Shown: piece by piece, positions 1,757-27,448 of the stretch
Layout: the number at the start of each line of letters is the position of its first letter
Numbering within the stretch: position 1 is the stretch's first letter
Program-made: the position numbers and the translations under genes
NCBI GenBank assembly: GCA_037443945.1
Contig: JBBINH010000015.1
Coordinates: forward strand, 4,475-68,474
Length of the DNA stretch: 64,000 bases
DNA from: Caldilineales bacterium
Lineage (GTDB): Bacteria; Chloroflexota; Anaerolineae; J102
Direction: 5' to 3'
Notes under the pieces: generated by a model
Told to the model about the DNA's origin: nothing
Seen by the model: only the letters and a program-made list of their open reading frames with translations
The model's database searches: none

Positions 1757-4717
1757 TCAACCGGCCACTCCGGCCTGGCGCAAGGCCCGCCATACCCGCT
1801 CCGGAGTGAAGGGGATCTGGCGGATGCGCACACCCGTGGCGTTGTAGATGGCATTGGCCAGCGCGGGTGCCACGCCGTCTTTCGGGATTTCGGCGATGGC
1901 CTTGGCGCCAAAGGGGCCGGTCGGTTCCAAGGTTTGCACCAGGGTGACGGCCAGTTTGGGCATCTCGTCGGCGCGATAGATTTTGTAGGGGCCGAGCCGG
2001 GGATTGAGCAGGCGCCCTTGCGCGTCGTAGACCATTTCCTCGCAATGGGCATAGCCCAGAGCCTGGGTCATGCCGCCTTCGACCTGACCGGTGGCCGTGA
2101 GCGGATTGATGGCCACGCCGCAGTCCACGGCCATGGCCAATTGCGTAACCGTGACCTGGCCTGTCTCGATATCCACCTCCACTTCGGCGAACTGGGCGCC
2201 AAAAGGTGGCGGCGAATCGGGCGAGACATAGGAGGCGCTGGCCATGAACTGGCGCTGATGGGCTTGATGCAGCGCGTGCAGGGCGATTTCGGCCAGCGAG
2301 AGCGAACGACCATCGGGCGCCCAAGCCCGGCGATCGCGCAAAACGATACCACTCTCATCGGCCAAACCGAGCATCAGCGCTGCCCGCTCCCGGATCTGCG
2401 CGGCCAGGTCTTCGGCGGCCTTCTTCACGGCCGTACCCGAGATATAGGTCGTGCTGGAGGCATAGGCGCCCACATCGAAGGGGGTCAGGTCGGTGTCGGA
2501 GGAGTAGACAATGATATCTTCCAGGGGGACCCCCAAGACCTCGGCGGCAATCTGGGCCAGCACCGTATCGGCGCCGGTACCCAGATCGGTGGCGCCGATC
2601 AACAGGTTGAAACTGCCGTCGTCGTTGATTTTGATGCTGGCGGCGCCCATATCGAGGCCGGGAATGGCCGTGCCGTGCATGCAGACGGCCATGCCGATCC
2701 CGCGACGGATGTGAGGCCGGTCCGGCGGCGCCTTCCACAATGGGTCCTGACGACGCTCCCAGCCGATGGCCTGCATGCCCTGGACGACGCATTCGCTCAG
2801 GCCGCTGCTCTGCACCACGGGTACCACGATGGTGTCGCTCTCCCGTTCACCCAGATAGGGCGCGATGTTGAGGGGATCGCCGACCTTCACCCAGTTCTTG
2901 CGTTTGAACGCGATGACGTCCATGCCCAGAGCCTCGGCGATCTCCTCCATGTGGCTTTCGAGGGCGAAATGGGCCTGGGGCGCGCCGTAGCCGCGGTAGG
3001 CTCCGGCTACCGGACGGTTGGTATAGACGACCAGGCATTCGAATTCCTTGTTCGGGCAGTTGTAGGTGCTCAATCCGCGCAGACCGGTCACGGTCTGCAC
3101 CGTAAGCCCATGGGTGGCATAGGCGCCGGTGTTGCCGATTACCGTCATCTTCATGGCCACCAGGGTGCCGTCCTTCTTGACGCCGGTCTTGTAGTGAATG
3201 GTCTGGGCATGGCGCGAGCGCGAGGATCTGAACTCCTCCTCGCGGCTCAGCTCCAGGCGAACGGGCCGCCCCGTGGCGATGACCAGATGTCCGACGATGT
3301 CCTCGATGAGCATCTCCTGCTTGGCGCCGAAGCCGCCACCGATGCGGGGTTTGATCACGCGAATCCGTTTGACGGGCAAGCCCAAAAGAGGCGCCACCAT
3401 GCGCCGCACATGGAAAGGCACCTGGGTGGACGTGCGCAACACCAGCCGCTCATCGGCGTCCCAGTAGCCGATGCAGATGTGCGGTTCGATGGGCACCTGT
3501 TGCACCTGATGGACCCGGTAGGTGTGCTCGAACACATAATCGGCCTCGGCGAAGCCCTTTTCCACATCGCCCACGGCGGCATGGATGCGATGGGAGATGT
3601 TATGCGCCGCGTCGTAGGCGCCTTCCATATCCGGTTCATCGTGGATGACGGGCGCGCCTTCCTTGATGGCCTCGTTTTCGTCGAAGACGGCCGGCAGGAC
3701 CTCGTAGGTCACGCGGATCCGTTTGATGGCCTCGGCTGCGATCTCCGGCGTTTCGGCGGCAACGGCCGCCACGCGATCGCCCACATGACGCACCTTGTTG
3801 TCGAAACTGACCTGGTCCCACGGTTTGGGATTGGGGTAGGATTGACCGCCGGAGGCATAGCGCACCCGCGGGATGTTTTTGTAATGAATCATGGCATGGA
3901 CGCCGGGCAAGGCACGCGCCTCGCTGTCGTCGATATCGAGGATTCGCGCATGCGCATGCGGACTCGTCAGGAGCTTGGCATGCAGCATACCCCGGATCTC
4001 AAAATCGTCCACAAAGGCCGGGTTGCCTTTGACCAGTTTGAGGGCATCGACCTTGACTTCGGGCTTGCCCACGACGCGCAGTTCCCGGAAAGGGGGCGCC
4101 ACGATGAACTTGGGCAGGGTCCGCGTGGCCGTGGTCGTAGGGCCGCCGCTGCCGACATCGGGCATTTCCTCCTCCCCGCCTACAGGCCCCCCTCCCTCAT
4201 CGGCGCCGGGTAGGGGCATCGGGGTTAGCACGTTGGGTTCAAAGACGGGCGGCTCTTCCCCGCGCAGGATGGCCGCGGCCTGCATAATGGCCTGTACCGG
4301 TTTGAGATAGCCTGTCTCGCGGTCGAGGATGCCGGATAGGGTATCGCGGATCTCCTCTTCGGTGGGATTGGGGTTGCGGTCCAGCAAGGCCTTGGCCGCC
4401 AGGACCATGGCCGGCGTGTTATAGCCCGACTGAATGGCGCCGGTGCGCATGAAGGCTTCCTGGATGGGATGCAATTGGGTTCCGCGCGACAGGCCCTCGA
4501 CCGTCTCGATGCTGTGGCCGTCGGCCTGGGCCGCCAGGAGGATATCGGCGCTGACAAGACGGCCATCGAGCAGGATGGCGGCGGCGCCGGTTTCGCCGGT
4601 ATCGGAACCATAGCGCAGGCTATAGTAACCGGCACGGCGGAGCACGACGCGCAGGTTCTCATGGGGTTGGCAGGTCAGCGTTTTGGCTTCACCGTTGATG
4701 GTCACATGGATTTCCAT
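1757..4717 (-). CDS. Xanthine dehydrogenase/aldehyde oxidase family protein: [2Fe-2S]-like small-subunit domain fused to a molybdopterin-binding large subunit
   Basis: The N-terminal ~150 aa align in pattern to CoxS-type ferredoxin subunits ('...INGE...LLDGR...SGYNTPAM...RETGY'). The remainder shows large-subunit hallmarks ('RIGGGFGAKQEM' Mo-cofactor motif) at roughly the right size. Start is placed at ATG 4717 ('MEIHVTINGE'), preceded by GAGAGG. Confidence 0.85.
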   Translation of the reverse strand: MEIHVTINGEAKTLTCQPHENLRVVLRRAGYYSLRYGSDTGETGAAAILLDGRLVSADILLAAQADGHSIETVEGLSRGTQLHPIQEAFMRTGAIQSGYNTPAMVLAAKALLDRNPNPTEEEIRDTLSGILDRETGYLKPVQAIMQAAAILRGEEPPVFEPNVLTPMPLPGADEGGGPVGGEEEMPDVGSGGPTTTATRTLPKFIVAPPFRELRVVGKPEVKVDALKLVKGNPAFVDDFEIRGMLHAKLLTSPHAHARILDIDDSEARALPGVHAMIHYKNIPRVRYASGGQSYPNPKPWDQVSFDNKVRHVGDRVAAVAAETPEIAAEAIKRIRVTYEVLPAVFDENEAIKEGAPVIHDEPDMEGAYDAAHNISHRIHAAVGDVEKGFAEADYVFEHTYRVHQVQQVPIEPHICIGYWDADERLVLRTSTQVPFHVRRMVAPLLGLPVKRIRVIKPRIGGGFGAKQEMLIEDIVGHLVIATGRPVRLELSREEEFRSSRSRHAQTIHYKTGVKKDGTLVAMKMTVIGNTGAYATHGLTVQTVTGLRGLSTYNCPNKEFECLVVYTNRPVAGAYRGYGAPQAHFALESHMEEIAEALGMDVIAFKRKNWVKVGDPLNIAPYLGERESDTIVVPVVQSSGLSECVVQGMQAIGWERRQDPLWKAPPDRPHIRRGIGMAVCMHGTAIPGLDMGAASIKINDDGSFNLLIGATDLGTGADTVLAQIAAEVLGVPLEDIIVYSSDTDLTPFDVGAYASSTTYISGTAVKKAAEDLAAQIRERAALMLGLADESGIVLRDRRAWAPDGRSLSLAEIALHALHQAHQRQFMASASYVSPDSPPPFGAQFAEVEVDIETGQVTVTQLAMAVDCGVAINPLTATGQVEGGMTQALGYAHCEEMVYDAQGRLLNPRLGPYKIYRADEMPKLAVTLVQTLEPTGPFGAKAIAEIPKDGVAPALANAIYNATGVRIRQIPFTPERVWRALRQAGVAG

Positions 4718-4736: not shown

Positions 4737-5474
4737 TCAGGACAGACGGGCAAGAACGCGGCGGGTGAGGACAACGGCCATCTCACGACGGTATTCGCGA
4801 CTTCCGCGAAAATCGCCCGGCGGCTCCAGGGTAGCTACCTGCTCGGGCGCAACAAGAATGGGCGTTTTGGCCACACCGCACAAGGCCAGGCGGATGTCGC
4901 CTTCCGGTGTCTTGCGGGCCACGGCGGCCACGATGGGCGTATCGGCCGGGGTGCGTGCGACCCGCTCGGCTGCGGCCAGGCCCGTTGTGGCCACCTTCAC
5001 CGCGGTGAGGATGCCGCTGGACAGGGCCGTCGGACCATCGGCCAGAAAAGCGGCTAGCGTCAGGGTGCGGCTGCCGGCCGACGTTTGTACCGTCACCTCG
5101 GTATCGAAGACGAGCAGCGCGGCCAGCAGCTCGCTCTCCGGATCGGCGCAGACGATGGCCCCGCCCACCGTGCCCTGATGACGGAAGGTATTCGGCCCTT
5201 CACGATGGGCGGCCTGACGCAGCACCGGTGGGGCGGCATCGAGTTCGACCAGGGTCTGCACACGCGTCATGGCTCCTATGTGCAGATAGCCATCGGCCAG
5301 AAGCACGTTGTCCAGACCCAAAGCCTGCAGATCCACCACCTCGTCTACCCCTTCGGCATGAGCATTGAGATACGTCCCCCCGGCGAGGACGGCCGTGGTA
5401 ACCCCCGGCCGAGCCAGCAATTGCAATGCTTCGCTCAGGCTTGTGGGGCGATAATAGGCACGAATGACTCCCAT
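4737..5474 (-). CDS. Xanthine dehydrogenase family FAD-binding subunit (CoxM/XdhB-like)
   Basis: 245 aa from the internal start '[20 protein letters not shown]' with an AAAGGAG RBS. It has the typical FAD_binding_5 opening ('VLAGGT') and a CO-dehydrogenase flavoprotein C-domain-like tail. It lies 19 nt upstream of the fused small/large subunit gene. Confidence 0.8.
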
Positions 5475-5715
5475 GGCATGCTCCTTTGCATACGATAGCG
5501 ATGGCAAACATCGACAAGACCGACGCGTTGCGATACTCAGTGTAACACAGGAACGACCCGAACGGATCATCCGGGGTGGAAGCCGTGCACGCTTCTTCAC
5601 AGGCTCCGGTTCCGTTTGGGCGATCGAGTTTTTCGGCGTTACACTAGGGCCGGCGTCCAAAGGTGGATGCCACGGTTATCCTGTTTTCACCCTAAATTGC
5701 GGGAGGCTGATTATG

Positions 5716-6291
5716 GCTAAGAAGATTTTGATGCTCGTCGGTGATTACGTTGAAGACTACGAAGTCATGGTTCCCTTCCAAGCCCTGCTAGCGCTAGGCT
5801 ACGAAGTGCATGCGGTGTGCCCGGATAAGAAGGCAGGCGATATCTGCCGTACAGCCGTGCATGACTTCGAGGGCGATCAGACCTATAGCGAGAAGCGCGG
5901 GCACAACTTCCGGCTGAATGCCACCTTCGCCGAGGTGGATGAGACCCAATACGATGCCCTGGTCATCCCCGGCGGCCGTGCGCCCGAATACATCCGCCTG
6001 AACCCGCGCGTGCTCGAGATCACCCGACATTTTGCCCAGGCCGAAAAGCCCATTGCCGCCATCTGTCATGGCGCGCAGGTGCTGGCCGCGGCCGGCGTGA
6101 TCGACGGCCTGACCTGCACGGCCTATCCGGCTGTGGCTCCGGATGTGACCCGGGCCGGCGGCAAGTATGTGGATGTCCCGGTCGATCAGGCCGTGACCGA
6201 TGGTGTGCTGGTGACGGCACCGGCCTGGCCGGCCCATCCGCAATGGCTGGCCCAGTTCCTCAAGGTCCTGGGGGCCAAGATCGAGATCTGA
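5716..6291 (+). CDS. DJ-1/PfpI family protein (type 1 glutamine amidotransferase-like)
   Basis: Start '[17 protein letters not shown]' with a GGGAGG RBS. Conserved nucleophile elbow 'AICHGAQVL' and 'VIPGG'. About 191 aa. Confidence 0.85.
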
Positions 6292-8121: not shown

Positions 8122-9264
8122 ATGCCCAAGGTTTATCCCTTCACCGCCATTGTCGGCCAGGAGCGCATGAAGCGGGCGCTCATCCTCAATGCCATCAACC
8201 CCCAGATCGGCGGCGTGCTCATCCGTGGGGAGCGGGGCACGGCCAAATCCACTACCGCACGTGGCCTGGCCGCCCTATTGCCCGAAATCGAAGTCGTGGC
8301 CGATTGCAAATTCGGCTGCGATCCCGATCAACCCGTCTTTCTGTGCACCGAATGCCAGGAGCGTCTGGAACGCGAAGGCACACTGCCGGTCACCAAACGC
8401 CGCATCCGCTTTGTGGATCTGCCCGTCAGCGCCACCGAAGACCGCGTTGTCGGCACCCTGGACATCGAAAAGGCCATCAAAAAAGGCGAACGCCATTTCG
8501 AGCCGGGCATTCTGGCTGCGGCCAATCGGGGTCTGTTGTACGTGGATGAGGTCAACCTCCTCGACGACCATGTGGTGGACCTGCTCCTCGATTCGGCTGC
8601 GATGGGGGTCAATGTGGTCGAACGCGAAGGCATCAGCTTTCAACATCCGGCCGCCTTCATTCTGGTCGGCACGATGAACCCGGAAGAGGGTGATCTGCGG
8701 CCCCAGCTGCTCGACCGTTTTGCCCATGCCGTCGATATCGAGGGCATTTCCGATCCGGCGGCCCGTGTCGAGATCGTGCGGCGACGTTTGGCTTATGACC
8801 GGGACCCCGAAGGGTTCTACGAGGAATGGGCCGAGCATGAGCGCCAGCTTTCCGAAGAAATCGAGCGCGCCCGCAAGCGTCTGCCCATGGTGCGCTATAC
8901 CGATCGCGACATTTTCCTCATCGCCCATCTCACGTCGTCCTTCCATGTGGACGGCCATCGTGCCGATATCGTCATCCTGAAAACGGCGCTTGCCAACGCA
9001 GCCTTCGAGGGGCGATTGGAGATCAACGAGCACGATATCCTGATCGGGGCTGAACTGGCTCTGCCCCATCGTCTCAAGCGGCAACCTTTCCAGGATGCCA
9101 GTTTGCAACCGCAGCAGCTCCAGCAGCGCATGGAAGAGGCCCAGCGCCAGGCCGATATGCGGCAATGGCAGACGGCCGAGGCTGCCGGTGACGACGTAAA
9201 AAAAAAGACCGTGAGCGAGAAGGCGAGGATCTCGGTGATGACACCGCCGGATCGCCCGATCTGA
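8122..9264 (+). CDS. Mg-chelatase subunit I-like AAA+ ATPase (ChlI/BchI family)
   Basis: 'PFTAIVGQERMKRALILNAINPQIGGVLIRGERGTAKST' matches the ChlI/BchI N-terminus. Walker B is 'LLYVDEVNLL', with the arginine-finger region and typical C-terminal helical domain. Confidence 0.85.
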   Translation: MPKVYPFTAIVGQERMKRALILNAINPQIGGVLIRGERGTAKSTTARGLAALLPEIEVVADCKFGCDPDQPVFLCTECQERLEREGTLPVTKRRIRFVDLPVSATEDRVVGTLDIEKAIKKGERHFEPGILAAANRGLLYVDEVNLLDDHVVDLLLDSAAMGVNVVEREGISFQHPAAFILVGTMNPEEGDLRPQLLDRFAHAVDIEGISDPAARVEIVRRRLAYDRDPEGFYEEWAEHERQLSEEIERARKRLPMVRYTDRDIFLIAHLTSSFHVDGHRADIVILKTALANAAFEGRLEINEHDILIGAELALPHRLKRQPFQDASLQPQQLQQRMEEAQRQADMRQWQTAEAAGDDVKKKTVSEKARISVMTPPDRPI

Positions 9265-10160
9265 TGGAGCGGCATTCGGACCGGGATGGGACTCGGCCCG
9301 GTGAGAGAAAGGCGCCGATGCGTCCGGTGCAAGTCGGGGATACCTTCAAGGTCAAGCGCCTGGATACGCCCCTGGATAAATTGACCCGCGCCAAAGGCGG
9401 CCGCCGTTCGTCCACGCAAACCAAGCGCAAACGCGGGCGTTACGTGCGGGCGCGTCCGGCCCACGACCGCCTGGACGACATCGCTTTCGATGCCACCCTG
9501 CGCCAGGCAGCCGTTCAGCAGATCCACCGGCAGCGGGACGACGTCGCTTTTGCCGTCGAGCGGGAGGATTTGCAGCGCAAGGTGCGGGTGCGCCGCGCCG
9601 CCAATCTCATCCTCTTTGTGGTCGATGCCTCGTGGTCGATGGCGGCGGCCGAGCGCATGGAGGCGACCAAGGGTGCGGTCATGTCCCTGCTCATCGACGC
9701 CTACCAGCGCCGCGATCAGGTAGGCCTGGTTGTCTTCCAGAAAGACAAGGCGCGCGTGGTGTTGCCGCCCACCTCTAGTGTGGAACTGGCGCAAAAAGCC
9801 CTGCGCGAGGTGCCGGTAGGCGGGAAAACGCCCCTCTCGTCCGGTCTGTTGGTGGCCTACCAGGTGATCCTGGCCGCACGACGCCGCGATCAGGAGACCC
9901 GCCCCTTGATGATCCTCCTCACCGATGGCGCCGGCAACGTGAGCATGACCGGTATGCCGGCTCAGGAAGAGGCGCTGCGCATGGCCGAGCTGTTCAAACA
10001 GGCTCACATCCGCACAGTGACCATCAACATGGAGCATCAAGCCTTCGACCGCGGGCTGGCCCAACAGTTGGCCGATGCCCTGGGGGGGCCGTGCTATAAC
10101 CTGCCCGAACTGCGCGCCGAATCGCTGGTCAAGACCGTGCGTCTGGAAATGGAGCGCTGA
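9264..10160 (+). CDS. von Willebrand factor A domain protein (BchD C-terminal-like partner of the ChlI-like ATPase)
   Basis: VWA MIDAS signature 'FVVDASWSMAA' (DxSxS), then 'LLTDGAGN'. Its start overlaps the upstream stop (TGATG). Confidence 0.8.
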   Translation: MERHSDRDGTRPGERKAPMRPVQVGDTFKVKRLDTPLDKLTRAKGGRRSSTQTKRKRGRYVRARPAHDRLDDIAFDATLRQAAVQQIHRQRDDVAFAVEREDLQRKVRVRRAANLILFVVDASWSMAAAERMEATKGAVMSLLIDAYQRRDQVGLVVFQKDKARVVLPPTSSVELAQKALREVPVGGKTPLSSGLLVAYQVILAARRRDQETRPLMILLTDGAGNVSMTGMPAQEEALRMAELFKQAHIRTVTINMEHQAFDRGLAQQLADALGGPCYNLPELRAESLVKTVRLEMER

Positions 10161-22780: not shown

Positions 22781-23674
22781 TTAGAGGCCGATGCCGACGG
22801 CCCGCAACACGGCGCGGGCGACGGCCTCGGCCGCCAGGATCCCGACCAGATTGGGGTCGGCTTCGGGACCACGACCGGTGCTGAGGGCAAACAGGGTATC
22901 GCCGTCGTAGAGGGTGTGGCTGGGACGGATGGTCCGCGCCAGACCGTCATGGGCCATCTGGGCCACCCGCAGGCATTGCGCCTTGCTTAGGGTACGGTCG
23001 GTGGCGACCACACCGATGGTGGTGTTCTGGCCCATTGCCGGGGCCGCAGGAGGGGCATCGGCAGCCGGGGGAACGGCCGCCACCACGACCCGACCTGTGG
23101 CCGGGTCCACGATCTCGCCGACGGCATTGACCGCCACTAGAGCGGCAACCCATCCCCCATCGGGTAGGGGCTGAGCCGCGCTGCCAAGCCCCCCCGGTTG
23201 GGCACCGGCAGGGCCGTAGAGCTTGGCCACGGTGGCCCCGGTCCCGGCACCCACACGACCCTGGGACACGGGCGCGTCTCCGGCAGCCTGACAGGCGCGG
23301 TAGCCGGCCGCGGCATCCGGCCACACATCGGCCCGCCCTTCGTTCAGGTCGAAAAGCACGGCTGCCGGCACGATCGGCACCCGCGCCCACGGTGTAACAA
23401 AGCCATAGCCGCGCTCGTACAGCCAACGCATGACGCCGTCGGCCGCCGCCAGACCGAAAGCCGAACCGCCGGTCAGCAGGATGGCGTGGACCTTGTCCAC
23501 CAGGTTCTCCGGCCGCAGCAGATCCGTCTCGCGCGTGCCGGGAGCAGCGCCACGGACATCCACGGCGGCCGTGGCGCCCTCAGGGGTCAGGACGACCGTG
23601 CAACCGGTAGCCGCTTCGACCTGGGTATCATGGCCGACCCACAAGCCGGCCAGGCAGGTGATGGTATCGTTCAT
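22781..23674 (-). CDS. P1-family peptidase (DmpA/L-aminopeptidase-like, S58)
   Basis: Start 'MNDTITCLAGLWVGHDT...GCTVVLT'. Ntn-hydrolase-like self-processing region 'GAGTGATV'. About 298 aa. Confidence 0.8.
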   Translation of the reverse strand: MNDTITCLAGLWVGHDTQVEAATGCTVVLTPEGATAAVDVRGAAPGTRETDLLRPENLVDKVHAILLTGGSAFGLAAADGVMRWLYERGYGFVTPWARVPIVPAAVLFDLNEGRADVWPDAAAGYRACQAAGDAPVSQGRVGAGTGATVAKLYGPAGAQPGGLGSAAQPLPDGGWVAALVAVNAVGEIVDPATGRVVVAAVPPAADAPPAAPAMGQNTTIGVVATDRTLSKAQCLRVAQMAHDGLARTIRPSHTLYDGDTLFALSTGRGPEADPNLVGILAAEAVARAVLRAVGIGL

Positions 23675-23750
23675 AGCAGCACCCCCATGGGAAGGGAGAG
23701 AAGGAGGGGAGATCAAGCGATATCGACGCCATAGAGGAGCTCCTATTATA

Positions 23751-24074
23751 ATGGAAAGCATGGAAGCCATCTATGCCGATCTGGAACGTCTGTTACAAAC
23801 GGGTGAGGTTGTTGCCCTGGCCACAATCGTGGCCACCAAAGGCTCGGTGCCGCGGAAGGTAGGCACCAAGATGATCATCCATTCGCTCGGCCAACACATC
23901 GGAACCATCGGCGGCGGTTGCGGTGAGGCCGAGGTCATTCGGGCCGGGCTGGATGTCATTCAGACCGGGCAACCGGCCCTGGTGCGTGTGGATTTGACCG
24001 AGCCGATCTCCATGCAAGCCCTGGGGGTATGCGGCGGCATCATGGACGTGTTCATTGTGCGCTGGCCGGCATAA
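23751..24074 (+). CDS. XdhC/CoxI-family Mo-cofactor insertion accessory protein, N-terminal domain
   Basis: 'LATIVATKGSVPRKVGTKMII...GTIGGGCGEAEV' is typical of the XdhC_CoxI N-domain. 107 aa. Confidence 0.7.
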   Translation: MESMEAIYADLERLLQTGEVVALATIVATKGSVPRKVGTKMIIHSLGQHIGTIGGGCGEAEVIRAGLDVIQTGQPALVRVDLTEPISMQALGVCGGIMDVFIVRWPA

Positions 24075-24083
24075 CCCGCAGCC

Positions 24084-24857
24084 ATGGCTTCTCTCGAGCT
24101 GCTCCGAGCACTCAACGAGGCCCTCGCACGCGGTGAGGCCGCCGCCCTGGTGACGGTGATCCGCAGCCGCGCCCCCGATCGGGTCGGCGCTGTGGCGCTG
24201 GTGCGGGCGGGGCAGCCGCCCCTGGGCGATCTGGGCCTGGGCGAGCCGGAAGCCGAGGTCTTGGCGGCGGCCGCCGCTGCCCTGGCCGCAGGACGACCGC
24301 AGCTCTTGCGTTTTCCCGAATGGGGCCTGGAGGTGTTTGTGGATGTGCAGGCACGGCCGCCGGAGCTGATTATCGTTGGCGCCGGCCACATCGCCGTCCC
24401 CCTGTGCGAGATCGGGGCCTTATGCGGGTTTCGGGTGACGGTTATCGACGACCGACCTCAATATGCCCATCCCGGTCGTTTCCCCAAGGCCGCGCGCGTC
24501 ATCGCCGCCGACATCCGTCGTACCGTGCGCGAGTTGCCGATGGATGCCAACACTTTCGTCGTCCTGGTCACGCGCGGGCACAGTCTGGATGTGGAATGCC
24601 TGCTGGAAATCCTGGACCGGCCCTTGGCCTATATCGGTATGATCGGCTCGCAGCGCCGGGTGCGCGCCGTCTTCGACCTGTTGGTGCGCGAACAGGGGAT
24701 TCCCCGGGCCAAACTGGAGCGCGTTTACGCGCCCATCGGCCTGGCCATCGGCGCCGAAACACCCGCCGAGATCGCCGTCGCCATCATGGCCGAAATCATC
24801 AACGTTCGCCGCGGGGGACAGGCCATCTCGTCGGCCGCTGCACGACCGCGCCTCTGA
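24084..24857 (+). CDS. XdhC-family accessory protein, Rossmann-like C-terminal domain
   Basis: 'LIIVGAGHIAVPL...VTVIDDR...YIGMIGSQRR' matches the XdhC Rossmann-like domain. It lies 9 nt after the N-domain ORF. Confidence 0.75.
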   Translation: MASLELLRALNEALARGEAAALVTVIRSRAPDRVGAVALVRAGQPPLGDLGLGEPEAEVLAAAAAALAAGRPQLLRFPEWGLEVFVDVQARPPELIIVGAGHIAVPLCEIGALCGFRVTVIDDRPQYAHPGRFPKAARVIAADIRRTVRELPMDANTFVVLVTRGHSLDVECLLEILDRPLAYIGMIGSQRRVRAVFDLLVREQGIPRAKLERVYAPIGLAIGAETPAEIAVAIMAEIINVRRGGQAISSAAARPRL

Positions 24858-24877: not shown

Positions 24878-27448
24878 ATGGGCGTCTTGGCCGATATGCG
24901 CATGCGCACGCGATTCCATCAACGACGCCGTGTTACGATCGGGGTGGTCGCCCTGGCTCTGGTCCTGGTCGGATTATGGAGTGGCATCTGGGTCTATTTG
25001 GGACCGTTCCCCGACCTGAACGACCTCGACCGCCATCGGCCTGCCGCGGCCATTCGCATCCTCGACCGTCAGGGTCTGCTGCTCTACGAAGTGGCCGATC
25101 CGGCCCGCGGGAACTATCGGCCCATCCCGATGACGGCGATGCCCCTGGCCTGTCGGCAGGCGATCGTGGCCGCTGAAGATAGTCGCTTTTATCATCATCC
25201 GGGCGTGGACCTGCCTTCAATCCTGCGGGCGGCCTGGAGCAACTGGCGGGCCGGCGGGGTGGTCCAGGGCGGTTCGACCCTGACCCAACAACTGGCACGG
25301 CTCTTGTTGTTGGATGAGTCCGAACGTTATGAGCAGAGCCTGCGCCGCAAGTTGCGGGAGGCGGTGCTGGCCTGGCGGCTGGAACGTCGTTTCGGCAAGG
25401 ACGAGATCCTGACCCTGTATCTGAATCATGTCTACTTCGGCCATTTTGCCGTCGGTCTCGAGGCGGCGGCGCAGTCGTACTTCGGCCATCATGCCGCCGA
25501 GCTGGATCTGGCCCAGTGTGCGTTGCTGGCCGGGTTGCCGCAGGCGCCCGCAGTCTACAATCCGGTGGAACACATGGAGGCCGCCCGCCAACGCCAACGT
25601 TATGTGCTGGCCCGCATGGTGGAAGCCGGTTTTATCGACAGGACCACGGCCGCACGGGCGGCCGCCGAACCGCTCACGTTGGCGCCCACGCCGTTCCCCA
25701 TCGAGGCGCCCCATTTTGTGTTCTACGTTTACGGCCAACTGGAGGAGGCCATCGGCCGCGAACGGCTGAGGCAAGGCGGTCTCACCGTGTACACCACGCT
25801 CGACCTGCCCCTCAACCGCCATGCCGAACGCATCATCCGCCACCGCCTGGCCGAGCTTAATCGCCCCGGACCCGACGGCGGGCGCCAACGCCGGGCCGAA
25901 AATGCCGCTCTGGTGGCGCTGGATCCGGCAACGGGGGCCTTGCTCGCTTTGGTCGGCAGTCCCGATTATTTTGATGCCCGCATCGCCGGGGCCGTCAATG
26001 CGGCCCTGACCTTGCGCCAGCCGGGTTCGGCCATCAAACCGCTGACCTATGCCATAGCCCTCGATCCGAAGCTCAGCGCAGCCGCCGGCCGCCGGCCGTT
26101 CACGCCGGCCACCATCCTGGCCGATGTACCGAGTCGCTTCCTCACGCGCGAAGGAACTTACTACGAGCCCCTCAATTACGACCTGACCTTCCACGGACCC
26201 GTCTCGGTGCGGATGGCCCTGGCCAATTCGTACAACGTGCCGGCCGTGCACACCCTGGCCGTGATCGGGGTAGCAGCCCTGGTGGAGCAAGCCCGTCGGC
26301 ATGGCATCACGACCTTGGCTCGCCCCGAAGACCACGGCCTGGCCCTGACGCTGGGTGGGGGCGAAGTGCGCTTGTTGGAATTGACGACGGCCTACGCGCC
26401 CTTTGTGACGGGCGGCCGGACCCTCCAGCCCATCGCCATTGCCCGCATCGAGGACATCCAGGGTCGGCTGTTGTTTGCCGCCGGAGTGGACGGACCGGTT
26501 TTCAATCCCGAAGGCTGGCCGCTCCCCGTCGTCGGTGAACGTCCCCTCGTGCTCGATCCCCGCACGGCCTATCTCATCACCGACATCCTCAGCGACAACG
26601 ATGCTCGCAGTCGCAGTTTTGGGTTCTCCAGCCCGCTGCGCCTGGACCGACCGGCGGCCGCCAAGACGGGAACGACCACCGATTGGCGGGATAACTGGAC
26701 AATAGGCTACACCCCCGATCTGCTGACAGGGGTATGGGTGGGCAATGCCGACAATACGCCCATGTACGGCGTCGGCGGCATTGACGGCGCCGCGCCGATC
26801 TGGCATGACTTCATGACCGTGGCCCACCGTGGGCGTCCGGTGCGGTCCTTTGCCCGTCCACCGGGTCTGGTCGAACGGACCATCTGTCTTCCTTCCGGGT
26901 TGCTGCCTTCGCCTGCGTGTCCGCAGGTCGGTCGCGAACGGTTCATCGCCGGCACCGAACCCGATCGACCTGATGACCAGTACCGCATCATCGCCGTGGA
27001 TGGGCGCACCGGCCGACCGGCCACGGCCGAGACACCGGCCACGGCCGTGGTCTATCGCGTGGCCTGGGCGCCGCCGCCGGCGCTGCGCGATTGGGCCCGT
27101 CAACAGGGGATGCTGCTCCTGGCGGACGACAGCGCGGCTCCCACGACCATCAACGCCCAACCCATGTTGCAGATCGTCAGTCCCGAACCGAATGCCGTGT
27201 ATGTGTGGGACGAACGGCTGCCCCCAGACGTACAACGGCTGCAACTGGCCGTCAGCTATCACGGTCAGGACGCGCTAAGTGCCGTGACCTACCTGCTCGA
27301 TGACGCCGTGGCGCTCACGGCCACCGACTGGCCCTGGACGGCCTGGTGGCTGCCAACATCCGGCGAACACCGTCTGCGCGTGATTGCCCGTACCCGCAAC
27401 GGCCGGACATTGACGGCGGATCCCATCCGTTTTCGCGTGGAAAAGTAA
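24878..27448 (+). CDS. Bifunctional penicillin-binding protein 1A (GT51 transglycosylase / transpeptidase)
   Basis: N-terminal TM. GT51 motifs 'AAEDSRFYHHPGVD' and 'GGSTLTQQL'. Transpeptidase motifs 'SAIKP' (SxxK), 'SYN' and 'KTGTT'. Confidence 0.9.
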   Translation: MGVLADMRMRTRFHQRRRVTIGVVALALVLVGLWSGIWVYLGPFPDLNDLDRHRPAAAIRILDRQGLLLYEVADPARGNYRPIPMTAMPLACRQAIVAAEDSRFYHHPGVDLPSILRAAWSNWRAGGVVQGGSTLTQQLARLLLLDESERYEQSLRRKLREAVLAWRLERRFGKDEILTLYLNHVYFGHFAVGLEAAAQSYFGHHAAELDLAQCALLAGLPQAPAVYNPVEHMEAARQRQRYVLARMVEAGFIDRTTAARAAAEPLTLAPTPFPIEAPHFVFYVYGQLEEAIGRERLRQGGLTVYTTLDLPLNRHAERIIRHRLAELNRPGPDGGRQRRAENAALVALDPATGALLALVGSPDYFDARIAGAVNAALTLRQPGSAIKPLTYAIALDPKLSAAAGRRPFTPATILADVPSRFLTREGTYYEPLNYDLTFHGPVSVRMALANSYNVPAVHTLAVIGVAALVEQARRHGITTLARPEDHGLALTLGGGEVRLLELTTAYAPFVTGGRTLQPIAIARIEDIQGRLLFAAGVDGPVFNPEGWPLPVVGERPLVLDPRTAYLITDILSDNDARSRSFGFSSPLRLDRPAAAKTGTTTDWRDNWTIGYTPDLLTGVWVGNADNTPMYGVGGIDGAAPIWHDFMTVAHRGRPVRSFARPPGLVERTICLPSGLLPSPACPQVGRERFIAGTEPDRPDDQYRIIAVDGRTGRPATAETPATAVVYRVAWAPPPALRDWARQQGMLLLADDSAAPTTINAQPMLQIVSPEPNAVYVWDERLPPDVQRLQLAVSYHGQDALSAVTYLLDDAVALTATDWPWTAWWLPTSGEHRLRVIARTRNGRTLTADPIRFRVEK

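Follow-up and report, generated by a model that had tools for sequence, protein, structure and literature searches.

A Two-Gene Operon Encodes an XdhD-like Protein and a Predicted FAD Subunit

The window, the whole 64,000-nucleotide stretch of DNA analysed here, carries an operon of only two genes: a ygfM-like gene and, 19 nt further on, an xdhD-like gene whose product fuses an Fe-S-like module to a molybdopterin-binding subunit. The features discussed below are as follows.

1757..4717, minus strand: xdhD-like gene, fused cluster-free Fe-S-like module and molybdopterin-binding subunit (ORF, translation, Pfam, NCBIfam, AF2)
4508..4717, minus strand: plant-ferredoxin-like domain, aa 1-70, former Fe-S II site (alignment to solved Fe-S subunits, pLDDT 78-96)
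4604-4606 (S38), 4589-4591 (T43), 4580-4582 (A46) and 4544-4546 (D58), minus strand: former Fe-S II ligand positions
4286..4504, minus strand: Fer2_2-like four-helix domain, aa 72-144, former Fe-S I site, beside the pterin (Pfam PF01799, E=2.8e-22; alignments)
4427-4429 (S97), 4418-4420 (N100), 4322-4324 (D132) and 4316-4318 (E134), minus strand: former Fe-S I ligand positions
4073..4267, minus strand: variable linker rich in Pro, Gly and Glu, aa 151-215, joining the module to the Mo part (identity, dN/dS, pLDDT)
1958..4027, minus strand: hammerhead and two MoCo-binding domains, aa 231-920 (Pfam; alignment to 4-HBCR and CODH large subunits)
Motifs of the Mo part: Q432 (STQVPF), GGGFGAKQE (aa 460-468), R575-G-Y577 and E624 (LGE)
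1889-1891, minus strand: catalytic E943, just beyond the aa 231-920 domain
4737..5474, minus strand: ygfM-like FAD-binding subunit gene, 245 aa, same operon (Pfam FAD_binding_5, E=1.5e-25)
23430..24857, plus strand: two adjacent XdhC-family (Mo-cofactor insertion/maturation) ORFs (NCBIfam NF045664/TIGR02964; Pfam XdhC_CoxI and XdhC_C)

The xdhD-like gene begins with an ATG at 4717, preceded by a GAGAGG ribosome-binding site, and stops at 1757-1759. Reading the plus strand across 1757-4717 yields no protein. Starting instead at GTG 4786 would lengthen the ORF and bring in a CPEC motif. This reading was rejected: the added stretch runs into the FAD gene, relatives have stops in it and do not conserve it, and the ribosome-binding site belongs to ATG 4717.

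Pfam matched Fer2_2, Ald_Xan_dh_C, MoCoBD_1 and MoCoBD_2, with the MoCo-binding and hammerhead domains of the xanthine oxidase (XO) family scoring 280 bits (PF02738), 264 bits (PF20256) and 97.5 bits (PF01315). The translation and these matches bear out the first-pass annotation of an intact, 986-aa fused subunit of the XDH family. The best NCBIfam model was TIGR03313, the YgfN/XdhD-type Mo/'Fe-S'-binding subunit, at 757.9 bits; this lies under the curated cut-off of 1101.9, which counts against an XdhD-type reading. The best PDB sequence match was 4-hydroxybenzoyl-CoA reductase alpha (E=7e-112). An AF2 model of the protein (pLDDT 82) gave TM scores of 0.67-0.86 against XO-family structures in Foldseek; the best structural match, Desulfovibrio aldehyde oxidoreductase (AOR), aligned over the full length (TM 0.77-0.85).

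The Fe-S-like Module Has Lost All Eight Cluster Ligands

Two [2Fe-2S] clusters are the textbook, family-defining trait of xanthine-oxidase-type molybdoenzymes. The first-pass annotation had proposed that the N-terminal ~150 aa are homologous, position by position, to Fe-S subunits, that every ligating Cys is substituted, and that either a lack of homology or a mere shift of the Cys would overturn this. A phmmer search of aa 1-163 against the PDB returned Fe-S subunits at high significance (4zoh_C, E=7e-34; 8uem_C, 3e-32; 3hrd_D, 7e-31; 1t3q_A, 1e-27), and in these alignments S/T/A/D and S/N/D/E of the query fall exactly on the eight cluster Cys of the solved subunits, so that 8/8 positions are substituted. 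The motif strings quoted in that annotation are all present in the translation: RYGSDTGETGAAAILLDG at aa 35-58, QSGYNTPAM at aa 96-104 and LDRETGY at aa 131-137. The profile-HMM comparison that it suggested matched Fer2_2 (79 bits) on the module and gave no match to Pfam Fer2; the Cys replacements themselves were confirmed by alignment.

No shifted ligand set was found. The module holds a single cysteine, C16, which is conserved in the clade, and the second clade-specific Cys, C679, lies in the Mo part; alternative Cys rebuilding a cluster are thereby excluded. Alignment of the clade (39 members in the ligand-column comparison) with its sister clade (52 members) revealed no other clade-specific Cys motif. 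A gained Tyr/Trp hopping chain was also considered, and no such pattern appeared among 63 clade-specific substitutions; aromatic hopping is in any case thermodynamically unsuited to low-potential electrons.

Structure prediction, likewise suggested at first pass, gave a folded module (pLDDT 76-96 across aa 1-150) that docks canonically, as in Desulfovibrio AOR, and still covers the pterin side. The linker behind it is far more variable, with a mean identity of 47% versus 75-81% in the flanking domains, a dN/dS of 0.26 and pLDDT below 50 at aa 172-198. The N-terminal module, descended from a two-[2Fe-2S] unit, is now a folded scaffold without clusters that contacts the pocket of the Mo-pterin as well as the partner subunit. 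Because all eight ligands are gone, the canonical Mo-FeS-FeS-FAD wire cannot run, as had been argued from the single sequence.

The Molybdenum Site Is Intact

The Mo-binding large-subunit part is retained, in keeping with the first-pass reading: its Pfam domains are present, RIGGGFGAKQEM occupies aa 458-469, and 91 sequences show no variation at Q432, E943 or the GGGFG motif. In CODH and 4-HBCR the Glu of GVGES/EASE is the alignment counterpart of E943, which lies in AIAEIP; we take E943 to correspond to the catalytic Glu of the bovine enzyme (E1261), and Q432 to the Gln that contacts Mo=O (bovine Q767). E624, in YLGE, aligns with E606 of E. coli XdhD, a Glu proposed to orient urate. The equivalent of E606 occurs in the sister clade too, and is therefore not specific to the Cys-less clade.

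Cysteine Loss Is Conserved and Occurred Twice

The Cys-less clade comprises at least 80 loci in at least 79 species-representative genomes of two phyla, with 308 candidate stretches. Among the 80 sequences scored (79 such genomes, from Chloroflexota and Acidimicrobiia, plus the window), the ligand set is absent in 78, and the other two retain just the four Cys of Fe-S I. None of the 120 homologues at least 75% identical to the window protein has the ligand set in the eight columns (120/120), which rules out a sequencing artefact and answers the question, raised at first pass, of whether the variant marks a conserved clade. The purifying selection postulated there was likewise recovered: the module averages 75% identity within the clade, and dN/dS is 0.093 for the module, 0.032 for the Mo part and 0.088 for the FAD subunit. 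Gene decay is ruled out by the module's low dN/dS and by clade-wide conservation. By these measures the clade is large and slowly evolving. It also contains intermediates (L034/L035 and P0124), in which Fe-S II, the FAD-proximal cluster, is lost and Fe-S I is kept.

In the sister clade (Chloroflexota; P0121, P0271-P0389), 52/52 sampled members have Cys at 8/8 columns. E. coli XdhD (YgfN, b2881), by alignment, has 0/8; the feature is therefore not unique to the window clade. The tree joins the window clade to its all-Cys sister at 99.5% bootstrap and places E. coli XdhD outside. With all eight Cys kept in the sister clade and E. coli XdhD branching beyond it, the two losses are independent and convergent. 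The Cys-free state of E. coli XdhD was absent from the first-pass annotation, as was the pathway context described below, and databases still annotate XdhD proteins as 'Fe-S binding'. We found no prior mention of a Cys-less XdhD/YgfN in the literature searchable without subscription.

The FAD Subunit Is Under Selection, but the FAD Link Appears Dispensable

The separate FAD subunit gene reported at first pass is present; its predicted product matches PF00941, keeps the AGGT and TxGG motifs, and scores 95 bits, under the cut-off, with TIGR03312. In 54 partner genes the aGGT, T.GG and PP.DFRGS..YR motifs are at least 90% conserved, and the pair is translationally coupled in most loci. In 12 loci with one residual Cys, however, no ygfM lies upstream, and in 7/12 a UacX-like gene stands there instead. 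Candidates for a diverged FAD subunit upstream in FAD-less L005, L007, L035 and L041 proved to be an aldolase, dehydrogenases, a solute-binding protein and an RNA ligase. Because ygfM is missing from these 12 loci and the intermediates lost only Fe-S II, the FAD link appears dispensable.

E. coli XdhD-YgfM converts urate to 2,8-dioxopurine ('yanthine') with NADH, in a reductive uricolytic pathway (PMC12507026), and the literature assumes that electrons enter there through FAD. The YgfM-like subunit could be the point of entry, passing electrons from NAD(P)H via FAD to Mo over an alternative relay, an option also raised at first pass. In place of clusters on Cys, the gap might be bridged through an altered quaternary structure, an organic cofactor bound there, or a metal coordinated by the replacing Asp, Glu, Ser or Thr. 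The NADH dependence, the conserved FAD motifs, the translational coupling and the subunit's dN/dS all speak for this, as does the conservation of the replacing residues, many of them acidic (D58, D132, E134; Asp in the E. coli lineage). Nevertheless, zero Cys remain to hold any known Fe-S cluster, the adjacent FAD gene is missing in several lineages, and it was the FAD-proximal cluster that the intermediates lost first. The predicted canonical fold and docking would also put FAD far from Mo, going by the cofactor distances of XDH structures. The E. coli activity itself was an end-point assay at 10 µM enzyme, with no XdhD-alone control described (PMC12507026). We consider entry through FAD unlikely, if still a serious candidate.

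Relatives Place the Gene in a Putative Reductive Urate Pathway

Neither pathway genes nor YqeB or YqeC occur within the 64-kb window. The XdhC-family ORFs at 23430-24857, 19 kb away, are possible accessory genes for the xdhD-like enzyme. The operon has no conserved neighbours; DJ-1/PfpI, gltX, rhomboid and YdjM genes vary between loci.

Relatives are more informative. In ~30 loci the gene belongs to a tightly packed FAD-xdhD*-XdhC-YqeB-YqeC operon, with XdhC directly downstream of the xdhD-like gene; relatives' YqeB and YqeC score 306 bits (TIGR03309, cut-off 220) and 182 bits (TIGR03172, cut-off 73). Among 79 loci, neighbours included guaD-like (19), ssnA-type (12), hyuA (11), DHO_dh/UacX-like (8), ygeW, ygeY and ygfK (6 each) and F420-type luciferase-like genes (6). 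L017/L020 carry ygeY-luciferase-ygfM*-xdhD*-ssnA in a single operon; ygeX was not found near any of the loci examined. Within these catabolic clusters the xdhD-like gene is the sole XdhD-type candidate. The neighbourhood thus appears to be that of the reductive urate (2,8-dioxopurine) pathway, and since the window lacks the pathway genes, the assignment rests on relatives at 68-82% identity. The clostridial 2,8-dioxopurine enzyme DOPDH requires SelD, and YqeB/YqeC occur in every strain with the urate gene cluster (bioRxiv 10.1101/2025.04.24.650524). We take the xdhD-like product for the large subunit of a molybdenum hydroxylase of the XdhD/YgfN type, very probably selenium-dependent in the window lineage.

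These observations bear on two suggestions made at first pass. One was a pseudo-enzyme, taken here as catalytically dead with a structural or regulatory role, as loss of the family-defining cofactor set and a window operon standing alone without pathway genes might suggest. It is hardly credible, because relatives' operons carry maturation genes (at ~30 loci) and reductive urate pathway genes; furthermore, the Mo part evolves at a dN/dS of 0.03 with an invariant catalytic Glu/Gln, and the Cys-free E. coli XdhD is active (PMC12507026). With the Mo site intact and XdhC/YqeB/YqeC maturation in relatives, we strongly infer that the protein would be a working catalyst.

The other was a non-redox, hydratase-like role. 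Spelled out for Mo as hydratase or dehydratase chemistry, it would have urate reduced at a flavin to a dihydro intermediate (hydrated 2,8-dioxopurine), leaving Mo only to add or remove water. Such a scheme would explain why FAD and Mo were kept and the wire discarded. However, the enzyme retains the Glu/Gln set typical of redox hydroxylases, co-operonic YqeB/YqeC, genes of the Se-cofactor trait, point to redox chemistry at Mo=Se, and we know of no precedent in the XO family. We regard it as very improbable.

Electrons May Be Delivered Directly at Molybdenum

By the cofactor spacings of solved family members, FAD and Mo are estimated to lie ~25-30 Å apart, too far for tunnelling; without a wire, electrons would have to be handed to Mo within the active site or close to it. 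Our preferred reading, to which we give a probability of roughly 0.55, is an XdhD-type urate/2,8-dioxopurine Mo enzyme in which the Fe-S module is a cluster-free scaffold and electrons are delivered directly at the Mo site. The two electrons would most likely come from a two-electron or hydride donor, or from a second hydroxylatable substrate, binding in the substrate funnel and reacting with Mo by a ping-pong mechanism. We know of no XO-family enzyme in which NAD(P)H or F420H2 reduces Mo directly. A purine-purine ping-pong is weakened because xanthine is neither a substrate of clostridial DOPDH nor, according to PMC12507026, consumed by an E. coli xdhA mutant; a xanthine-urate exchange was accordingly demoted to one version of direct delivery. 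Two further points count against the preferred reading. The window holds the two-gene operon only, without pathway or YqeB/YqeC genes in 64 kb; and the strong purifying selection on the FAD subunit, its retained FAD motifs and the NADH activity reported for E. coli argue for a continuing catalytic role of the flavoprotein, one that delivery at Mo leaves unexplained.

Alternatively, an external redox partner might dock near the pterin, or near the now empty Fe-S I site, in the manner of Mo-only enzymes from other families; candidates are a ferredoxin, a YgfK-like Fe-S flavoprotein, a UacX-like FMN enzyme or an F420-dependent luciferase-like enzyme. The UacX-like gene takes the ygfM position directly upstream in seven FAD-less loci, YgfK-like or F420-type genes share operons with the xdhD-like gene, and no physiological donor is established for clostridial DOPDH. 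Yet the YgfK, UacX and F420-type neighbours are already assigned to reducing 2,8-dioxopurine, the cluster-free module would still shield the pterin side in the AF2 model, and the 64-kb window encodes none of the candidates. A docking partner therefore seems improbable.

Extending direct delivery to the whole type, we tentatively suggest that XdhD-type enzymes, E. coli XdhD included, may be the first wire-free XO-family molybdoenzymes. A hydride donor (NAD(P)H, F420H2), or else a second purine, would enter the substrate funnel and reduce Mo(=S/Se) directly, the purine version being a redox-neutral 'transhydroxylase'; the flavoprotein would have been repurposed, and the wire discarded at least twice, perhaps against electron leak to O2 during a reductive reaction in aerobic or facultative bacteria.

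Both clusters have thus been dispensed with independently in two lineages, each of which retains its Mo site, its maturation genes and, in most cases, its flavoprotein partner. Two cluster-free lineages mean that the opening step of the reductive urate pathway cannot draw its electrons in the way so far assumed. This newly described pathway has medical relevance to gout and hyperuricaemia, and how electrons are supplied in cluster-free enzymes is directly testable in E. coli. The clade's natural intermediates and the sister clade, which shows the opposite loss in retaining Fe-S but not the FAD motifs, extend the series available for comparison.

Comparison with Known Systems

The window protein shares the folds of all domains and the catalytic Glu/Gln with R. 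capsulatus and bovine XDH, CoxLMS, Desulfovibrio AOR and 4-HBCR; these canonical enzymes carry two [2Fe-2S] clusters on eight Cys, whereas the window protein has 0/8. Pyrogallol-phloroglucinol transhydroxylase, of the DMSO-reductase family, hydroxylates and dehydroxylates at a single Mo centre without any net input of electrons. It is a working analogy only for chemistry directly at Mo, its fold and cofactor type being unrelated.

Members of the sister clade are 59-62% identical to the window protein and share its fused architecture and phylum; unlike the window clade, they match Pfam Fer2 and have different neighbours. Their 'FAD subunit', whether upstream or fused, is truncated and without the AGGT/TxGG motifs in 3/3 examples checked. 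Clostridium sporogenes XdhAC, the selenium-dependent DOPDH, probably shares the reaction and the pathway and is linked to SelD/YqeB/YqeC (bioRxiv 10.1101/2025.04.24.650524). By its description, which is the basis of this comparison, it differs in having Fe-S-binding domains, no FAD subunit and no use of NAD(P)H, and it clusters with nicotinate dehydrogenases.

E. coli XdhD, of all characterised enzymes the nearest, is 42% identical to the window protein across 926 aligned residues, with the E606-equivalent Glu shared, and has the same organization, a fused Fe-S-like module and Mo part with a short YgfM-type FAD partner directly upstream. Relatives of the window gene resemble its locus in their ssnA, hyuA, ygeW, ygeY, ygfK, yqeB and yqeC neighbours. 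The replacements differ, D,A,D,S/S,N,S,D in E. coli versus S,T,A,D/S,N,D,E in the window. The window clade is further set apart by its hosts (Chloroflexota/Acidimicrobiia), by its sub-cut-off TIGR03313 score, and by the F420-type or UacX-type reductases that replace YgfK in some of its clusters.

Gene structure and operon

The first-pass annotation had described 1757-4717 as an XDH-family fused subunit without any of the eight Fe-S cysteines. We refer to this gene as xdhD*, the window-clade version of the XdhD-type Mo large subunit, and to the short YgfM-type FAD subunit gene preceding it as ygfM*. The initiating ATG of xdhD* is preceded by GAGAGG, and every sequence string cited in the annotation was found in the encoded protein. 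A plus-strand reading of the same interval gave a meaningless translation. A longer ORF from an upstream GTG, which adds a CPEC motif, was rejected because the added stretch runs into the FAD gene and contains stops in relatives. The top NCBIfam model for the protein was TIGR03313 (YgfN/XdhD type), at 758 bits, below its cut-off of 1102.

Features of the window and of the xdhD* protein
1757-4717, minus strand: xdhD* gene; ATG at 4717, stop at 1757-1759, 986 aa
xdhD* aa 72-144: Fer2_2 (Pfam)
xdhD* aa 231-342: a/b hammerhead (Pfam)
xdhD* aa 371-608: MoCoBD_1 (Pfam)
xdhD* aa 647-920: MoCoBD_2 (Pfam)
Fe-S II site, ferredoxin-like domain: S38, T43, A46, D58 in place of Cys
Fe-S I site, four-helix domain beside the pterin: S97, N100, D132, E134 in place of Cys
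4737-5474, minus strand: ygfM* gene; FAD_binding_5, short YgfM type, 245 aa, 19 nt upstream of xdhD*
5713-6291, plus strand: DJ-1/PfpI family gene, divergent from the ygfM*-xdhD* operon; adjacency not kept elsewhere
23430-24074, plus strand: XdhC-family ORF 1; XdhC_CoxI N-domain only, after a ~115-aa unrelated lead
24084-24857, plus strand: XdhC-family ORF 2, adjacent to ORF 1; XdhC_CoxI and XdhC Rossmann domain

The window has a G+C content of 63%, and the flanks of the operon (DJ-1/PfpI, gltX, rhomboid, YdjM) are not kept from locus to locus. The two XdhC-family ORFs adjoin a gene (24878-27448) for a class A penicillin-binding protein. A BchI/BchD-like pair lies at 8122-10160 on the plus strand in a non-photosynthetic-looking context: an AAA+ Mg-chelatase/MoxR-like ATPase and, after it, a VWA-domain protein. 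The source contig also carries, ~3 kb from xdhD* and just outside the left edge of the window, a tungsten-type aldehyde:ferredoxin oxidoreductase gene (AFOR_N/AFOR_C; L001 13734-15593). With it, the genome has genes for at least two pterin-dependent enzymes, besides XdhC maturation genes.

The N-terminal module is conserved without its cluster ligands

Residues 1-163 of the xdhD* protein aligned end to end with [2Fe-2S] small subunits in a phmmer search against solved structures (4zoh_C, 7e-34; 8uem_C, 3e-32; 3hrd_D, 7e-31; 1t3q_A, 1e-27), and in these alignments a non-Cys residue occupied each of the eight cluster columns. The loss reported in the first-pass annotation thus concerns a true Fe-S-subunit homologue. 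Pfam profiles agreed, matching Fer2_2 and finding no Fer2 domain in the protein. Ligand columns were likewise substituted in all 120 database homologues of 75-100% identity to the window protein, the residues in column order being S / T / A,S,G / D,E / S / S,A / D (C in 12) / E.

Across these homologues, mean identity was 75% in the module (the N-terminal ~150 aa), 81% in the Mo part and 47% in the linker. In a comparison with a 96%-identical relative, dN/dS was lowest in the Mo part (0.032), followed by the FAD subunit (0.088) and aa 1-150 (0.093), and highest in the linker (0.26). The AlphaFold2 model (mean pLDDT 82, pTM 0.82) showed a confident module (pLDDT 76-96) and a disordered linker at aa 172-198. 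Foldseek matched the whole chain of this model, module included, with the fused aldehyde oxidoreductases of Desulfovibrio (TM 0.77-0.85), so that docking of the module at the canonical place is predicted. The Cys-free state is conserved and is not damage. The module is conserved and folded, and is unable to ligate [2Fe-2S] clusters.

With each species represented by one genome, a scan brought up 308 related stretches, of which the best 80 (68-83% identity) were analyzed. Hosts among these 80 were Chloroflexota (Caldilineaceae, Ardenticatenaceae, Promineifilaceae, Anaerolineales and others) and Actinomycetota (Acidimicrobiia). Two ~69% identical members, L052 and L055, are labelled Saprospiraceae and Candidatus Brocadiia; because their gene order is identical to that of Acidimicrobiia loci, these labels probably reflect mis-binning and not a wider distribution. 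Ligand columns were scored in 80 sequences (79 loci plus the window, L047 being left out for its truncated N-terminus). None of the eight Cys was present in 66, a single Cys at position 7 remained in 12, and in two the Fe-S II Cys were gone but the four Fe-S I Cys were kept. The latter two, both from Anaerolineae (L034 20-2956, GTSD-CCCC; L035 9998-12949, STSD-CCCC), are natural intermediates.

The molybdenum site and the flavoprotein partner

Alignments of the Mo part with CO dehydrogenase and with 4-hydroxybenzoyl-CoA reductase (E=7e-112) locate the catalytic Glu (E943), the Gln of the STQ motif (Q432) and the GGGFG loop. All three are invariant across a 91-sequence alignment, and by these features the Mo site looks functional. 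E624 is the conserved equivalent of E606 of E. coli XdhD, a Glu proposed to orient urate (PMC12507026). A pseudo-enzyme, one of the roles offered in the first-pass annotation, is the least likely of the explanations considered.

Of the 66 fully Cys-free sequences, 47 have the partner gene ygfM* no more than 300 bp upstream, frequently with a 4-nt overlap. On average, ygfM* copies are 51% identical to that of the window, with conservation of at least 90% in the motifs aGGT, T.GG and PP.DFRGS..YR. In two loci the otherwise coupled gene pair is split by mobile DNA: a XamI/Eco57I-type restriction-modification pair (L004 1575-4174) and a DDE transposase (L023 7619-9088). Unrelated genes lie upstream at several Caldilineaceae loci. 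ygfM* was missing upstream in all 12 single-Cys loci (Ardenticatenaceae/Promineifilaceae), seven of which carry a DHO_dh/UacX-like gene in that position.

In the sister clade, a Chloroflexota lineage represented by P0121 with all eight ligand Cys, three examples of the FAD partner were truncated or fused and without AGGT and TxGG (L084 8348-9004, L085 8253-9011 and P0317 aa 1-260, each missing the N-terminal ~70 residues and the FAD motifs). Whereas the sister clade kept Fe-S and apparently lost FAD, the window clade did the reverse. Fer4-type proteins are encoded directly downstream in L084 and L086.

Genomic neighbors and pathway

About 30 loci, mostly Acidimicrobiia-type, carry the operon FAD-xdhD*-XdhC-YqeB-YqeC, in which stops overlap the starts that follow. 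YqeB scored 306 bits (TIGR03309 cut-off, 220) and YqeC 182 bits (TIGR03172 cut-off, 73); both are marker genes of selenium-dependent molybdenum hydroxylases (PMC2276186; bioRxiv 10.1101/2025.04.24.650524). Neighbors across the 79 loci were identified with E. coli queries and Pfam.

Pathway neighbors of xdhD* across 79 loci
guaD-like: 19 loci
canonical xdhA-type: 13 loci
ssnA-like: 12 loci
hyuA: 11 loci
DHO_dh/UacX-like: 8 loci
mocA: 7 loci
adenosine deaminase: 7 loci
ygeW: 6 loci
ygeY: 6 loci
ygfK-like: 6 loci
F420-type luciferase-like: 6 loci

L017 and L020 carry a single operon, ygeY - luciferase-like - ygfM* - xdhD* - ssnA, and L008 has the order ssnA, ygeW, ygeY, ygfM*, xdhD*, hyuA, guaD. 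These recurrent neighbors correspond to the genes of the reductive urate (2,8-dioxopurine) pathway, which was described in 2025. There, E. coli XdhD-YgfM uses NADH to reduce urate to 2,8-dioxopurine; YgfK/UacX reduce this product in turn, before SsnA, HyuA, YgeW, YgeY and YgeX act (PMC12507026). The first enzyme in C. sporogenes (DOPDH) is SelD-dependent (bioRxiv 10.1101/2025.04.24.650524), and clustering of Chloroflexota SsnA with an F420-type enzyme has been reported previously (PMC12507026). Within the 64-kb window pathway genes are absent, only the two XdhC-family ORFs (23430-24857) being found, and the window xdhD* is therefore assigned by orthology. We strongly infer that the xdhD* protein is an active, probably selenium-dependent, Mo enzyme of the urate/2,8-dioxopurine step.

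In L021 (1742-8622) a Cys-free xdhD-like gene and yqeB are followed by another fused xdhD-like gene, which falls among all-Cys lineages; the two xdhD-like products are possibly a pair of selenium-dependent hydroxylases that act one after the other. A nicotinate phosphoribosyltransferase gene lies directly upstream of the five-gene operon in Acidimicrobiia-type loci L036 (7602-9176), L039, L042, L045 and L049, and L036 has a canonical XdhB/XdhC/XdhA-type trio some kb downstream.

Electron supply

The Cys-free module is accompanied by a conserved Mo site and a conserved partner gene. FAD and Mo are separated by roughly 25-30 Å in solved family members (from XDH structures). Across such a gap without the two clusters, intramolecular FAD-to-Mo electron transfer in the xdhD* complex would not be credible. 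In our leading hypothesis, a two-electron donor or else a second substrate would enter the substrate funnel and reduce Mo there directly. Against direct reduction, the partner flavoprotein is clearly under selection, and E. coli XdhD-YgfM was active in an end-point assay with 10 µM enzyme and 1 mM NADH, for which no control with XdhD alone is described (PMC12507026). Beside these points stand two rival explanations, a hidden non-Fe-S relay from FAD, akin to the alternative relay in the first-pass annotation, and an external redox partner that docks. Xanthine as second substrate also meets objections: it is not used by clostridial DOPDH, nor was it consumed by an E. coli xdhA mutant (PMC12507026). 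A non-redox role at Mo, resembling the hydratase-like role first offered, is a further rival to direct reduction. The original observation of Cys loss is confirmed, and the interpretation attached to it is partly supported.

Independent cluster loss and comparison with E. coli XdhD

The first 160 residues of E. coli K-12 XdhD (b2881; L083 21317-24187) contain no Cys. In an alignment with 3hrd_D, the Fe-S subunit of nicotinate dehydrogenase (E=1.3e-17), the ligand columns of XdhD hold D, A, D, S / S, N, S, D, and Pfam matched Fer2_2 only. The Fe-S binding in its RefSeq name, 'molybdopterin-binding subunit and Fe-S binding subunit', and in that of NCBIfam TIGR03313 looks wrong, judging from these columns. 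The 2025 papers, including PMC12507026, took R. capsulatus XDH as the template for XdhD-YgfM, called YgfM 'the electron-transfer module' and left the missing ligands unmentioned.

A search of 1.84 billion cluster representatives returned 46 relatives with the module, 41 of which had all eight Cys. The others were P0135 and P0172 (Cys-free, about 50% identical to E. coli XdhD), P0124 (Fe-S II only lost), P0194 (a window-clade fragment) and P0133 (N-terminus truncated). In a neighbor-joining tree built on 734 columns from the Mo part alone, with 200 bootstraps, the window clade was monophyletic (100%) with the all-Cys P0121 lineage as its sister (99.5%), and E. coli XdhD plus P0135 (100%) fell outside this pair. 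All 52 sampled sister-clade members, also Chloroflexota, had eight Cys and a Pfam Fer2 match. Regain of eight ligands being implausible, the clusters were lost at least twice, independently in the window clade and the E. coli XdhD lineage; counting P0124, Fe-S II was lost at least three times. L034 and L035 are placed within the clade with weak support (55-70%), which does not distinguish one from several Fe-S I losses.

xdhD* is of the XdhD kind, a new variant whose cluster-free state arose independently. No paper remarking on the Cys-less state of E. coli XdhD was found in the openly available literature searched. Like the window protein, this closest characterized enzyme has none of the eight [2Fe-2S] ligand Cys, and the local oddity becomes a testable question about the electron supply of XdhD-type molybdoenzymes.
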